Positions 15,405 through 37,532 of a stretch of DNA of 64,000 bases are shown in pieces. Within the stretch, counting starts at the first letter, position 1, and each line of letters begins with the position of its first letter. Source of the DNA: a virus; the IMG/VR virus record IMGVR_UViG_3300025030_000050, positions 1 through 64,000 of that record. The stretch is one strand, 5' to 3'. A model generated the notes under the pieces. That model ran no database searches, was not told the origin of the DNA, and saw only the letters and a program-made list of their open reading frames with translations. Both the position numbers and the translations under genes were made by a program.

Positions 15405-15782
15405 ATGAAAATAGAAATGACTGATGAACAAGCTAAGGCTTTATCAAATGCATCTGAAACAATTTCAAGGCTGTTAATGGGGCAGTTTAATGAAATAAAA
15501 TATATGTTTTTACATAAAGATATTGATTTTGGCGAGCTTGATGTAGTTTTGCTTAGATTAGAGAAAGTTATTTTTCCTAATGGTAGGATAGTTGCTGATA
15601 GAGAATATTCATCAATTTTGTGGGATATTTATCAAGTTTTGCGCTGGCATCTGGCGTATAAAAGAGATAAAGACCCGACAATGACGAGAGATTGGAAAAC
15701 TCAAATAACAGTAGATTATGACGAGCCACGAAAAATGAGCAAAGAACCATTTATTAAAATAGAGGATAATTATGACGTATAA
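15405..15782 (+). CDS. hypothetical protein
   Basis: 125-aa ORF overlapping the ligase start. Confidence 0.55.
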   Translation: MKIEMTDEQAKALSNASETISRLLMGQFNEIKYMFLHKDIDFGELDVVLLRLEKVIFPNGRIVADREYSSILWDIYQVLRWHLAYKRDKDPTMTRDWKTQITVDYDEPRKMSKEPFIKIEDNYDV

Positions 15783-17106
15783 TGCAATTATATGTGAAGT
15801 AAATGAGGTAAAACCTCATCCAAATGCAGATAGAATTAAATTAGCTAATATCATAGGATATCAAGTTATAGTTGGTCTAAATGTTAAAGAACATGATATC
15901 GGCATTCTATTTCCAGATGATGGACAACTATCACCAGAATATTGCCAAGCCAATGATTTAATTGCATATGAAGATGAAGACGGCAATAAGAAAGGTGGTT
16001 ATTTTGACAACAATAGGAGAGTCAGGGCTCAAAAATTTAGAGGAGAAAAATCTGAAGCTTATTTCGCACCTTTAGATTCTCTTTCTTTCACTGGATACGA
16101 TATTTCAAAATTAAAAGTTGGTGACAGATTTAGTGAATTAAATAATATCAGTATTTGTAATAAATACATTAATGAAAAAACCAGGCATGTGGCCCAAAGC
16201 AATAAAAAGAAAACAGTTAAAGAAAAGCTGTTTACAAAGCAATTTAATGCGCATTTAAAAAATATATTTCCCGAACATTTTGAAACATCACAATTTAAAC
16301 AATGCTCTGACAAAATATTGCCAGGTTCTTTAATTACGCTAACGTCTAAAAATCACGGCACGTCTGGGCGAGTATCGTATTTGCCAGTAATTCAAAAGAA
16401 AAAGTGGCATGAACGAGTATTTGACTTTATCACAAAAAATAAAGACTATAAAACAGCTTATGATTATGTCCATGGCTCAAGGCGAGTTATTTTAACTAAA
16501 GATGGCTGTGATGGATTTTATCACAACACAGATTTTAGACATTATGTTTTAGAAAGATTTAAAGGTAAATTAAATAAAAACGAAATTGTTTATTTTGAAA
16601 TTTGTGGATTTTGTGCTAGCGACAGACCCATTATGTCAGTTGTAGATACTAGCAAGTTAAAGGACAAGGAATTTACAAAAAGATTTGGCAAAACAATGGT
16701 TTATAAATATGGGTGCATAAACGGGACTTGTGATATTTATGTGTATAGGATGGCTGTTATTAACCCAGATGGTGTGATTGAGGAAATGCCATGGAATAGG
16801 GTAAAACAAAGGTGTAGTGAGATGGGGATTAAGCACGTTGTTGAAATTGACCAGTTTATTTTGGATGATAAAACTGATTTAAGATCTATTGTTAAATATC
16901 ACGTAGAAGAAGTTGATATTGCCGATCCTATTGACGACTCACATATAAAAGAAGGTATTTGTATTAGAGTTGATGATAAAAATGGTAGGACAAAAATATA
17001 CAAGGAAAAGACCTTTATATTCAAAGTATTAGAAGGTATTGCAAAAGATAGCGATGTAGAAGATATGGAGGAAGTTGAGAGTTTGTTGGAGAATAGTACT
17101 GAATGA
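15772..17106 (+). CDS. RNA ligase (Rnl2/DRB0094-like) with N-terminal tRNA-binding OB fold
   Basis: VKPHPNADRIKL N-terminus, motif I SKNHGTS, YFEICG, KEGICIR, YKEK. Confidence 0.85.
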   Translation: MTYNAIICEVNEVKPHPNADRIKLANIIGYQVIVGLNVKEHDIGILFPDDGQLSPEYCQANDLIAYEDEDGNKKGGYFDNNRRVRAQKFRGEKSEAYFAPLDSLSFTGYDISKLKVGDRFSELNNISICNKYINEKTRHVAQSNKKKTVKEKLFTKQFNAHLKNIFPEHFETSQFKQCSDKILPGSLITLTSKNHGTSGRVSYLPVIQKKKWHERVFDFITKNKDYKTAYDYVHGSRRVILTKDGCDGFYHNTDFRHYVLERFKGKLNKNEIVYFEICGFCASDRPIMSVVDTSKLKDKEFTKRFGKTMVYKYGCINGTCDIYVYRMAVINPDGVIEEMPWNRVKQRCSEMGIKHVVEIDQFILDDKTDLRSIVKYHVEEVDIADPIDDSHIKEGICIRVDDKNGRTKIYKEKTFIFKVLEGIAKDSDVEDMEEVESLLENSTE

Positions 17107-19822: not shown

Positions 19823-19898
19823 GCTCAGTTAGTTCAATTGGTAGAGCCACCGGCCCATAACCGGTAAGTTGGGGGTTCGAGTCCCTTTCTGCTCACCA
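19823..19898 (+). tRNA. tRNA-Met/Ile2(CAT)-like, acceptor stem defective
   Basis: 76 nt, D arm, ACCGG-CCCATAA-CCGGT, GGGGG-TTCGAGT-CCCTT, encoded CCA; only 4/7 acceptor pairs. Confidence 0.7.
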
Positions 19899-34373: not shown

Positions 34374-35486
34374 ATGGCAACTAAAAGAAGTGCAATGAAA
34401 GAACAGTTGAAAAAGAGACTAGCAGAACAGCAGGCGGGCAAAAACAAAGGCTTGAATGATTTTGAATCGTATTTTGAAGCGCCGGAAGGGTCAAGCCAGT
34501 GGCAGACAAAGGCGGGCAAAGGGAGTGAAGGCACAGACTACGGATTTGACATTATCCCATTTTATGCAGGTTCTAAATATCCAACTAATGGATATAATAT
34601 CAATGAAGGAGATTTGACTTATACCCTTGACGTGTGGGTTCACTTTAAAGTCGGACCCATGAATAAGCCCGTAGTTTGTCCGCTGAAGAATTATAGCCTG
34701 CCTTGCCCTATTTGCGAAAAGCGAGTAGCTATTCTAGCCGAACGTGGTCAGATGGATAAGGAAGAATACAAAAAGTTTAAGAAAGAAAATGGTTATTTGT
34801 ATCCATCCCGCAGGGTTATGTATAACGTCATTGTTCGTAGCGATGAGAAAGAAGAAAAGAAGGGTATCCAGATCTATGAAATCAGCCATTTCTTTATGGA
34901 GAAAAAGTTACAGGAAGCGGCTAAAAAGCCTCGTGGTGGTGGCTTAGTTTCTTACCCTGATCCGGATGAAGGCAAGACTATTTGGATTAATTTTAGCCTA
35001 TCCGGTGAAGATAGTTGGAGTGTAGGAGTTCCGCAATTTGAAGACCGCGATTATATCATTACCGATGAACAGATTGATGCCGCATACAGGCTTGATGAAC
35101 TACTAGTCAGTTATGAATATGATGAAATTTTAGACATGATGAATGTTAAAGCCAGTCATGTTGCTGAAGAAGAAGTTTGTGAAGATGAACCTCCAGTTGT
35201 TAATCGGAGAAAACCAGCACCTAAAGAAGTTAAAGAAGAAGTCGAAGAAAAAGAAGTTGAGCCAAAACATGAACCTAAACAGAGTGAAACCAGCACTTGT
35301 CCACATGGAGCAAATTTTGGCGTAGATTACGATGAATACACAGAATGTGATAATTGTGTTGTGAATGATGATTGTTTGGCTAAAAAAGAAGCAAATGCTA
35401 TTGCTGAACAGAAGAAAAATGAAAAGAAACCCGTACCAAGGCGAAAACTCAAACAGAATGTGGATGACGATGACATTCCGTTTTAA
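34374..35486 (+). CDS. single-stranded DNA-binding protein (gp32-like)
   Basis: VH..VG....VVCP......CPIC, Y.V.VR, DPDEG core; acidic tail ending DDDDIPF. Confidence 0.8.
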   Translation: MATKRSAMKEQLKKRLAEQQAGKNKGLNDFESYFEAPEGSSQWQTKAGKGSEGTDYGFDIIPFYAGSKYPTNGYNINEGDLTYTLDVWVHFKVGPMNKPVVCPLKNYSLPCPICEKRVAILAERGQMDKEEYKKFKKENGYLYPSRRVMYNVIVRSDEKEEKKGIQIYEISHFFMEKKLQEAAKKPRGGGLVSYPDPDEGKTIWINFSLSGEDSWSVGVPQFEDRDYIITDEQIDAAYRLDELLVSYEYDEILDMMNVKASHVAEEEVCEDEPPVVNRRKPAPKEVKEEVEEKEVEPKHEPKQSETSTCPHGANFGVDYDEYTECDNCVVNDDCLAKKEANAIAEQKKNEKKPVPRRKLKQNVDDDDIPF

Positions 35487-35508
35487 TTGTTAGGGATTAG
35501 AATTTAAT

Positions 35509-35601
35509 AAGCCATGGTCTTGCACTGTAATCGCCTCGCAGAAAGGGTAAAGCAAGATGGGGTTAGCGGCGATTTACCTGGTTCGACTCCGGGGTGGCTT
35601 A
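35509..35601 (+). ncRNA. tRNA-like RNA with pseudoknot-like core
   Basis: AAGCCAT/GTGGCTT acceptor, CCTGG-TTCGACT-CCGGG T arm, two interleaved 7-bp helices inside. Confidence 0.65.
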
Positions 35602-35610
35602 TTTTTAATT

Positions 35611-35755
35611 GGTCTTATGGCGGAATAGGTAGACGCTACCAGATAGCTGGTGATCAGGATATGGCTGACAACATATCCTGCGAAAAGTGAGGGAGGGCCG
35701 ACAACGGTGAATGAACTTGAATCCTCTCATGTAGGTTCAAATCCTACTAAGACCA
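35611..35755 (+). ncRNA. 145-nt expanded tRNA-Leu-like RNA
   Basis: GGTCTTA/TAAGACC acceptor, Leu-type D arm, ACCAG-ATAG-CTGGT, two extra helices, GTAGG-TTCAAAT-CCTAC T arm. Confidence 0.75.
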
Positions 35756-37532
35756 TTTTTTAATTTTATAAAAGGAATAAAAATGGAAGAACTAAATTTA
35801 CAAAATACTTTTGTTATTGGTTATGCTATTGAAATAACTATAAATAATAGAAGAGTGATTTGTGTCAAAAATATAAATTATAAGGGTAATTATATGGGAG
35901 ATATAGAATTCACTACAGATATTAGAAAAGCGTTTTTATATTATTCAGAAGAAGAAGCTGTAAAAATGTTAAAATTTGCTAATTTAGATGTTGATGGGTT
36001 TGAAGTTAAGGAATATCATTTACCAATTACCGATTTTATTTAGAAAAGGAGAAAAATTATGAAATGTAATTATTGTGGTAAAAGAATTTGGTTTTGGCAG
36101 AAAAGTCAATCAATAGATATTTTAGGCTCTAATCCTAGACACTATCACTATTTGTGTCTATTTCATAAATTATGGAGCAGTCTTACTGACGCTTCTGGAT
36201 ATTTTGAACGAACTAAAGATAGTGAAAAAAGTTTTAAAATAATGTTTGAGTTGATTAACCGTATTTAGAAAAGGAATAAAATTATGAAATACCAAGATCT
36301 TGTAGAAGAAGTAAAAGCTGAAATGATGGAAGAAAAGAAAGACATTGCCAAAGAAGAAATTAGAGAAAAGCTTGTTGAGATTGAAGTTACTGAAAATGTA
36401 TTGGCTGAGATGAAAGAACAACTAGAGACGATGCTTGATAGAGAAATCTAATGATTATAATTGGTGATAAAAATAGAATAATTTTGCCATATATGTATGA
36501 TGAAGAATCTTTTATTGAACTGGAAAAACCATTCTTGAAAGATTGCCAGATAACTATGGCTCACGACTGTCATGATGTCACCGCGTCTTGGGGCATGTAT
36601 AAAAATTTTATGCCTGGGTTAATTGAACAAGAAGTAAACTTTAGGTTCGCTTGTGATAAAGTTAATATTGTTCCATCTAATACAGCAAAAGGTTGGTTTG
36701 AAAAATTATCGGAAGAGTTATCGGTTAAAGAACTAATGGGAATAGTCAAAAATAAACTAATGGAAAGAAAACATGGGAAAAGATGATTCAAGGATTATGG
36801 CTATTGTTTCTTTGTTTATTTCGAGTTTGGCTGTTGCCACTATGATAATAGAATTTACTTCTTTCAATCATGAGGTTGAAGATTTAAATGAAACAATAAT
36901 GGAGATGAAAAATAAATTAAGTGAAGTGGATCATAACTCAACTTATAGCCAATATGGAGACCTTAAACAAGTTGATGGTAATATTTTTTATTATGGTGGG
37001 GAGCGATTGCCAGTTAACGATGTTGTTGGTATGATTCTTGATGAAATGGGAATGGAAGTTGTTAGCCATAACGGATATGTTTTAGAATCTAAATAAATTA
37101 AAGGAATAGTCATGGAAGATAAAATGACGTTGAAAAATTGTTTAAAGATCATGGTTGATAGTTTAAGAATTCTTGAACAAGCAAAATCAGATTGTGATAC
37201 TGTTTGTCTATCTGCTTGGGACGTACTTATTGAAGACGATAATACAATTGAAGAAAAGGACATCAGTTTTAAAGAAATGCTTAAAATTGCTAAAAGTCTG
37301 GCAAAGAGAAAGTTAAAGAAATTAGAAGAAGAGCACAAAAAATTGGGTCTGTTACTAGAAGAAGTTATGCAAGAAGGAGAAAACAATGAATAGAAAAAGA
37401 AAAGATGGCGAAACATACGAACAATATAAAGCCAATATGAAAGAAGAAAATAGGCTCATCGACATCAAACTAGAAGGCCGTATTTTCTGGAATTCTAAAG
37501 TAAATGGGACATACACAAAGGTTTATAAATAA

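Follow-up and report, generated by a model that had tools for sequence, protein, structure and literature searches.

A candidate non-decoding tRNA-Leu-like RNA gene with a long structured interior follows the gp32 gene of an uncultured T4-like phage

Does a gene that has the acceptor, D and T arms of a tRNA-Leu, and only a 4-nt loop at the position of the anticodon arm, encode a tRNA, the remains of one, or an RNA of another kind? The question is raised by positions 35611–35755 on the + strand of the window, by which we mean the whole stretch of DNA that was analysed, i.e. the first 64 kb (64,000 nucleotides) of a 113,349-bp IMG/VR virus record with a GC content of 32%. The virus has T4-like replication genes encoding a family B DNA polymerase, an ATP-dependent ligase, a UvsX-like recombinase, a ribonucleotide reductase and a gp32-like protein, and the 145-nt RNA gene begins 125 nt 3′ of the gp32 stop codon (35486) and has the same orientation as the genes on either side. 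We find that it is very probably a real gene for a tRNA-like RNA that does not decode.

Direct reading confirmed that every feature described for this RNA in the initial annotation is present and in its place (Table 1). All 12 pairs of the acceptor and T stems are intact. The D stem has three standard pairs out of four, G13–A22 being non-standard, and the D arm contains A14, A15, G18, G19 and A20a within a 19-nt core that fits the pattern used in the family search described below. The Rfam tRNA model (RF00005) aligns to the RNA from end to end with a score of 36.1 bits (gathering score, 29), matching the acceptor, D and T arms and making a 74-nt local skip at the anticodon arm. No tRNA was called at 35611–35755 by ARAGORN at its default settings. 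In an Rfam scan of 35400–35900, RF00005 was the sole significant family, and YrlA/bacterial Y RNA, skipping-rope and the other curated tRNA mimics gave no significant match. A tmRNA search with ARAGORN likewise found none; the RNA contains no reading frame, and its D arm is complete.

Table 1 Features of the 145-nt RNA, its surroundings and its counterparts behind gp32
Feature	Position	Strand	Details
gp32-like single-strand DNA-binding protein gene	34374..35486	+	phrog_1192; PF08804 in homologues; syntenic anchor
Second tRNA-like RNA	35509..35601	+	9 nt upstream of the 145-nt RNA; two interleaved helices enclosed by an acceptor and a T arm
Acceptor 5′ strand GGTCTTA (G1–A7)	35611..35617	+	7/7 Watson-Crick pairs with TAAGACC 35748-35754; U at −1
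U8 G9, Leu-type D arm and U26	35618..35637	+	Rfam tRNA alignment; loop AAUAGGUAG
U8 G9	35618-35619	+	direct reading
D arm GCGG / AATAGGTAG / ACGC	35620-35636	+	direct reading
Truncated anticodon-position arm ACCAG/CUGGU, closed by AUAG	35638..35651	+	35638-35642, 35643-35646, 35647-35651
9-bp hairpin CAGGATATG / CATATCCTG, 8-nt loop GCTGACAA	35655-35663, 35672-35680	+	direct reading
Variable-arm-like third domain UGAGGG/CCUCUCA	35688..35729	+	closing strands 35688-35693, 35723-35729; MFE fold
GGCYGACAAC, copies 1 and 2	35663-35672, 35696-35705	+	in the 9-bp hairpin and in the third domain; direct reading
U48, candidate Levitt partner of A15 as in tRNA-Leu	35730	+	equivalent U invariant in the UGCAAAU-loop subgroup
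T arm GUAGG / UUCAAAU / CCUAC	35731..35747	+	Rfam alignment; 5/5 pairs; canonical U54 U55 C56 A58
Acceptor 3′ strand and discriminator A73 (35755)	35748..35755	+	direct reading; CCA not encoded; then U run
Post-gp32 elements of other lineages			L009, 116 nt (eight contigs); L014, 122 nt; L094, 102 nt; L093, about 190 nt

The RNA is predicted to fold well as a whole, with a minimum free energy (MFE) of −50.4 kcal/mol (z −4.2) that none of 200 shuffled sequences equalled and a structure that reproduces the helices of the initial annotation. The opposite strand reaches −40.7 kcal/mol, and the GC content of the RNA, 48%, stands against 32% for the genome. The variable region amounts to 79 nt with further helices, and the interior folded on its own gives a z of −3.4; this interior fold is a thermodynamic prediction throughout. 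The anticodon-position hairpin (−4.9 kcal/mol, z −6.1) and the 9-bp hairpin at 35655..35680 with its 8-nt loop GCUGACAA (−12.5 kcal/mol, z −6.4) score lower still, although for pre-selected segments such as these the comparison with shuffles is biased. The UGAGGG/CCUCUCA domain, which occupies the end position of the long variable arm of class II tRNAs, folds no better than shuffles when taken alone (z −0.7).

A 7-bp acceptor, a D arm and a T arm with a UUCRANY loop are thus all present in the RNA. A decoding anticodon arm is not: no 5-bp stem carries a 7-nt loop that has U33 and a purine at position 37, the ACCAG/CUGGU stem being closed by 4 nt, and the other candidate for such an arm has a 9-bp stem and the 8-nt loop G-CUGACAA. 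The same holds for the relatives described below: among the matches listed, one of 53 dereplicated long members has a 5-bp hairpin whose loop is a 7-nt YU-NNN-R, compared to 1.8 expected from shuffles. As hairpins of this kind are at chance level, the family as a whole does not decode, and the proposal of the initial annotation that the RNA could not read a codon is upheld.

Charging places different demands on a tRNA-Leu. [quoted passage not shown] All published E. coli LeuRS identity elements (A73, A15:U48, G18G19, A20a, U8:A14, U54:A58, G18:U55 and G19:C56) are found in the 145-nt RNA when scored as nucleotides at the expected positions, with pairing deduced from position. Since this set is complete, a charged-but-not-decoding RNA is a reasonable proposition for this copy, which is plausibly chargeable. 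Leucylation is less likely to be the common function of the family, because the discriminator and position 55 vary among its members.

The counterparts of the RNA were sought by synteny, using an alignment of gp32 homologues that yielded 160 related loci on contigs of viral or metagenomic origin. A Leu-type long tRNA-like gene lies directly 3′ of gp32 in five lineages, namely this phage, L009, L014, L094 and L093, the gp32 proteins of the nearest lineages being 49–58% identical to that of this phage. Each of these elements combines a D arm of the Leu type with a T arm and an acceptor stem that closes it; their interiors show no similarity among themselves or to that of the 145-nt RNA, MAFFT alignments of divergent members being unreliable in the interior. 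L014 and L094, whose downstream genes are nearly identical, differ in their acceptor and D-arm sequences, and the pairing is nevertheless retained. The tRNA shell has, therefore, been maintained at the gp32 locus across a long divergence while its interior was replaced. The initial annotation had named an insert that is unconserved and unstructured as evidence against its reading; the sequence of the insert is indeed unconserved between related phages, but the insert is structured.

In L057 a Leu-type long RNA is found 3.6 kb upstream of gp32. Homologues of gp32 with 71–73% identity are known from Logan/NCBI (P0002 and P0003); a search of genome contigs with P0003 gave no match, and two loci obtained by phrog_2426 synteny were both without tRNA-like genes. 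No closer homologues were found with an exact 25-nt D-arm/stem pattern, a single-protein gp32 search or blastn against GenBank phages, and tblastn of gp32 against phages returned one match at 24%. Two other odd tRNA-like genes follow gp32 in L009 (5102–5188 and 5198–5271) and in L095 (5110–5192 and 5205–5278). One resembles a tRNA-Sec or allo-tRNA (35–37 bits on RF01852, below the cut-off); its anticodon loop has GUA and its CCA is encoded. The other forms a cloverleaf of 73 nt with the loop CAAACAG and A33.

Shells of this type are common beyond the gp32 locus. The 19-nt D-arm pattern TGGCGGAAWAGGYAGACGC, searched against IMG/VR, matches at least 119 contigs. Among the matches listed, 88 distinct elements have definable ends (the procedure that finds them closes at 1.3% of random starts), including about 20 ordinary tRNA-Leu(UAA) genes of 81–91 nt and 64 long shells between 90 and about 250 nt in length. 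These shells are not represented by a family in Rfam 15, and none of their interiors matches an Rfam family. In 50 shells with distinct acceptor and T-stem sequences among the matches listed, acceptor positions 1–6 use all four Watson-Crick pair types. In one sublineage, according to RNAalifold, 9 of the 32 predicted pairs have both partners substituted and the pairing preserved, and some of these lie in an interior hairpin; the comparison comprised only five sequences, one of which is poorly aligned at its 3′ end. The interior has the motif AUA(A)G close to its 5′ end in 22 of 53 long members among the matches listed, compared to 11.2 ± 3.0 expected; the AUAG of the 145-nt RNA fits this pattern and may be what is left of a Leu anticodon loop, or may serve as a small recognition motif.

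The largest subgroup among the matches listed is defined by a UGCAAAU T loop with G55, a 6-bp T stem and any discriminator base; across the 88 distinct elements this loop occurs in 52 and the extra T-stem pair in 60. The sixth T-stem pair of the subgroup undergoes G-C to A-U exchange, and its junction before the T stem consists, among the matches listed, of A (53 of 57), U, the equivalent of U48 (57 of 57), and G (53 of 57). The CAUG junction of the 145-nt RNA (35728–35731) has the same A-U-G directly before the T stem. Furthermore, the RNA and the phage shells with the UGCAAAU loop have in common an identical 19-nt D-arm core, a structured interior that varies, the lack of both an anticodon arm and an encoded CCA, and a location in a tRNA cluster or accessory region. 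The RNA is nevertheless outside this subgroup on account of its UUCAAAU loop and 5-bp T stem: where the subgroup combines G55, a 7/6 arrangement with 13 stacked pairs and any discriminator, the 145-nt RNA combines U55, a 7/5 arrangement and A73, and because of these three properties it is closer to a true tRNA-Leu. The two T-loop forms are linked by L183 and L194, close relatives whose sole difference is U55 or G55. At the level of sequence, then, the conserved part of the family is the L-shaped upper body of a tRNA (acceptor, D/T elbow and A15:U48 core), and the interior is a structured module with a rapid turnover between lineages.

The genomic settings of the shells vary. Two Lactobacillus plantarum phages carry one that is without annotation in their records, in ATCC 8014-B2 between two tRNA-Arg genes and in H1-Guo with an ArpU-type gene on one side and the terminase genes on the other. 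The neighbours of the shell that recur in temperate phages are Tad2-like anti-defence genes and terminase subunits; in L170, L172, L235, L244, L254, L260 and L277 the shell lies about 0.5 kb upstream of a Tad2-like gene (Thoeris anti-defence 2, PF11195) and about 1 kb upstream of the gene for the small terminase subunit. Eight further shells (L212, L246, L282, L251, L266, L222, L191 and L200) have a second insertion, of 50–100 nt and with its own stem, in the T loop (GGUGA / CUAUACGAG ... CUCGG / CAAAUCC). An element of L180 (2870–3005, +) has a normal anticodon stem and variable arm, A73-CCA and an insert between CUU and AAAA, and is a candidate short-intron tRNA-Leu(UAA).

The interior of the 145-nt RNA contains the motif GGCYGACAAC twice, which the initial annotation took for a pair of protein-binding sites. 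This reading is not sustained. When the interior was shuffled 2000 times, 103 of the shuffled sequences contained a 10-mer repeat with no more than one mismatch (p about 0.05), so the duplication is marginal, and the predicted structural contexts of the two copies differ. Nor do the homologues contain clearly conserved loops of this kind, a check that the initial annotation had proposed: GACAAC occurs in 4 of 53 long family members among the matches listed, compared to 0.9 expected, which is not a clear enrichment. Neither GGCYGACAAC nor its complement has a further copy on either strand of the 113-kb genome, and therefore the motif has no antisense target in cis. The only canonical-looking anticodon arm in the family, GUGGG / UUGACAA / CCCAU with GAC in its loop, is that of L172 (2541–2648) and its relatives; its loop shares, perhaps by coincidence, the YGACAA core of which the 145-nt RNA has two copies.

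The 145-nt RNA is probably transcribed together with the second tRNA-like RNA immediately upstream of it. The latter has a 7-bp acceptor (AAGCCAU/GUGGCUU) and a UUCGACU T loop around interleaved 7-bp helices, GUCUUGC/GCAAGAU and AAUCGCC/GGCGAUU, and its nested MFE is no better than that of shuffles (z +0.96). A scan of the interval between the gp32 stop codon and both RNAs found no promoter-like site, and a scan at the 145-nt RNA found no terminator-like site, multibranch stems being invisible to the procedure. The heptamer TGGTCTT occurs at 35515–35521 and again at 35610–35616, which would allow GGUCUUG within the upstream element to pair with the 3′ strand of the 145-nt RNA acceptor; the repeat may be the trace of a tandem duplication or reflect an alternative long-range pairing. 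The open reading frames that adjoin the 145-nt RNA have no useful PHROG or Pfam matches.

A search of the genome recognised no phage-encoded RtcB, CCA-adding enzyme, L/F-transferase, FemAB or cyclodipeptide synthase. A 444-amino-acid open reading frame (15772–17106, +), which adjoins a dCMP-deaminase-like one, has a borderline RNA-ligase domain (PF09414; 24.7 bits in the scan of open reading frames and 27.1 bits in a six-frame search of the genome, with a cut-off of 27) and could encode an enzyme that repairs or joins RNA. At 19823–19895 (+) lies a tRNA whose anticodon is CAU and whose acceptor stem has mismatches; it scores 41.3 bits with Rfam and is not called by ARAGORN at default settings.

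Phages have long been known to make RNAs of comparable appearance: RNA1 and RNA2 of T5 and rnaC and rnaD of T4 were described decades ago, and we know of no function assigned to any of them. The closest in design is T5 RNA1 (AY543070, 30501–30644), a 144-nt RNA annotated in GenBank as a ‘tRNA-like stable RNA with unknown functions’. Its D arm is of the Leu type (CCGG / AAUUGGUAG / ACGG), its T arm is canonical, an acceptor stem closes the molecule and a 7-nt anticodon loop is missing; the gene lies among other phage small-RNA genes separated by short spacers, and the Rfam tRNA alignment is obtained only by skipping the interior. The two RNAs differ in where they have been extended, T5 RNA1 having an extra 47 nt inside the anticodon-position stem and an ordinary variable arm, and the 145-nt RNA an extra 79 nt in the variable region. 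Their interiors show no similarity, T5 RNA1 scores 24 bits with Rfam compared to 36 for the 145-nt RNA, and its discriminator in the Rfam alignment is not A. T4 rnaC and rnaD (species 1 and 2; AF158101, 70908–71171) are 139 and 119 nt long, lie at the end of a tRNA cluster and are annotated as small stable RNAs; for these and for T5 RNA1, stability is as given in the GenBank annotation. rnaC has a terminal T arm, a closing stem and an internal motif, GAGUAGCGU, that occurs twice. Unlike the 145-nt RNA, the two T4 species have no Leu-type D arm, they share no sequence similarity with it, and they are not recovered by the Rfam tRNA model, their best Rfam match being tRNA-Sec at 17.5 bits. In view of these precedents, the 145-nt RNA joins a kind of RNA that is known but unexplained.

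Two further comparisons set the limits of the likeness. With class II bacterial and phage tRNA-Leu the RNA shares the acceptor, D arm, T arm, A73, A15:U48 and the D/T loop pairs, and normal tRNA-Leu(UAA) genes have the same D-arm pattern. These tRNAs, however, are 81–91 nt long with one short variable arm, whereas in the 145-nt RNA the variable region measures 79 nt and forms two or three helices, and a 7-nt anticodon loop is lacking. Phage tRNA genes are also over-long in Lak megaphages, where ‘enigmatic introns’ fall outside the known intron classes (Devoto et al. 2019, PMC6784885). Removal of the insert leaves a recognisable anticodon in the Lak tRNAs, whereas no single excision restores a Leu anticodon arm in the 145-nt RNA.

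Could the RNA nevertheless be a real tRNA with one or more unconventional introns, whose removal yields a decoding molecule? The published Lak megaphage tRNAs set a precedent for unexplained introns in phages (PMC6784885), the L180 element resembles a tRNA-Leu(UAA) with an insert of roughly 52 nt in the anticodon loop, the phage has the weakly RNA-ligase-like reading frame described above, and ARAGORN at relaxed thresholds proposes a tRNA-Val(GAC) with a 56-nt intron at 32/33. This last candidate was rejected, being one of 18 relaxed calls of which at least two are verified to be false and many have kilobase-sized introns, and combining a mismatched stem, C33 and an unstructured 21-nt variable region with a Val anticodon on a Leu-type body. 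Among all 972 single deletions of the RNA, 423 led to ARAGORN calls, none with a Leu anticodon; as shuffled interiors gave 19–695 calls, i.e. as many, the excision test has no discriminating power. No intron family was matched at E values up to 10, no RtcB gene was found in the phage, and the extra sequence of 56–79 nt, which is shorter than typical group I introns, lies outside a stem that is already closed. Because 4 nt suffice to close this stem, the anticodon loop is deleted, not interrupted, and we regard an intron as highly improbable. A decaying tRNA-Leu pseudogene that lost its loop, acquired insertions and has no function is equally improbable in our estimate. It would fit the UAG, a Leu anticodon and possible remnant, within the AUAG loop, the unconserved interior and the third domain that folds no better than chance; decay is not expected, however, to leave two long perfect hairpins (with the low z values of pre-selected segments noted above) or to spare the acceptor and T stems, all but one D-stem pair and every nucleotide of the tertiary core. 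The persistence of the shell, with co-varying acceptor sequences, at the same locus in lineages whose gp32 is 49–58% identical, while the interior is replaced, is the main argument against it.

Other readings grant the RNA a role and place it elsewhere than in tRNA mimicry. The shell may be a carrier that provides nuclease resistance and RNase P/3′ processing for an interior that differs between phages and works as an aptamer, a protein-binding module or an antisense RNA. Identical or near-identical shells that bear unrelated interiors (e.g. the GTGCTTG group), compensatory changes in interior helices within a sublineage, extra T-arm-like hairpins in several interiors (GTTCGA in 7 of 53 members among the matches listed, compared to 1.1 expected) and the good predicted fold of the interior of the 145-nt RNA would all agree with this. 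With the search-defining D arm set aside, however, what is conserved family-wide is the elbow core (U48, G53:C61 and the T loop) and no interior motif, and neither the Rfam comparison of the interiors nor the search for an antisense target of GGCYGACAAC in the 113-kb genome produced a match, so that we consider a carrier unlikely. Still less weight is given to a cis-acting element at the end of an operon, at which RNase P cleavage, termination at a U run or both would stabilise the gp32 mRNA and release an RNA without a role of its own. The short distance from the gp32 stop codon with no promoter-like site between, the U runs that follow both tandem tRNA-like elements and the post-gp32 position kept in five lineages speak for such an element. 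However, RNAs of the same kind occur in tRNA clusters, ahead of terminase genes and, in L057, far upstream of gp32; the terminator scan, within its limits, was negative; and a processing signal would need no complete set of Leu-type D-loop nucleotides and Levitt pair. We judge this reading very unlikely.

Our best explanation, which we hold to be probable, is that the locus is a gene for a small, stable, non-decoding mimic of tRNA-Leu with the same design as T5 RNA1. The RNA would be transcribed with, or just after, the gp32 gene, and RNase P would cut it at G1, where the U at −1 and the 12-bp stack of acceptor and T stem would direct cleavage; the 3′ end would then be trimmed and CCA added by host enzymes. 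Because the RNA cannot read a codon, the mature mimic would, in our reading, occupy a host protein with specificity for the upper body of tRNA-Leu. We tentatively prefer a mechanism in which the mimic is a decoy or sink for such a tRNA-binding host factor, a possibility that the sequence allows and that we put forward with considerable doubt. LeuRS would be the first candidate target, in which case the mimic may be leucylated and serve as a sink or as a non-ribosomal carrier of leucine; alternatively, the target could be a tRNA-directed defence or toxin enzyme, for which the mimic would be a decoy. A more specific version, in which host LeuRS leucylates an RNA that never enters decoding and that would either act as a LeuRS sink and retune host translation or serve a tRNA-dependent enzyme as donor or decoy, with the two YGACAA loops as possible baits for an anticodon-directed nuclease, is decidedly unlikely to be correct as a whole; CUGACAA does fit the pattern of a valine GAC anticodon loop.

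The tRNA-shaped stable RNA design that was known from T5 and T4 is now found in an uncultured T4-like phage. The 145-nt RNA and its relatives have a conserved Leu-type elbow and acceptor core, a fast-changing structured interior and belong to a large family that is absent from Rfam 15. As the 145-nt RNA is unusually near to a real tRNA-Leu (7/5 arrangement, U55, A73 and the LeuRS identity set), it would be a convenient substrate for a charging test. If it is a leucylated non-decoding mimic, this would be the first function for the class of T5 RNA1 and T4 rnaC, and if such RNAs are decoys for tRNA-binding host factors, they would constitute an RNA-based class of phage counter-measures.
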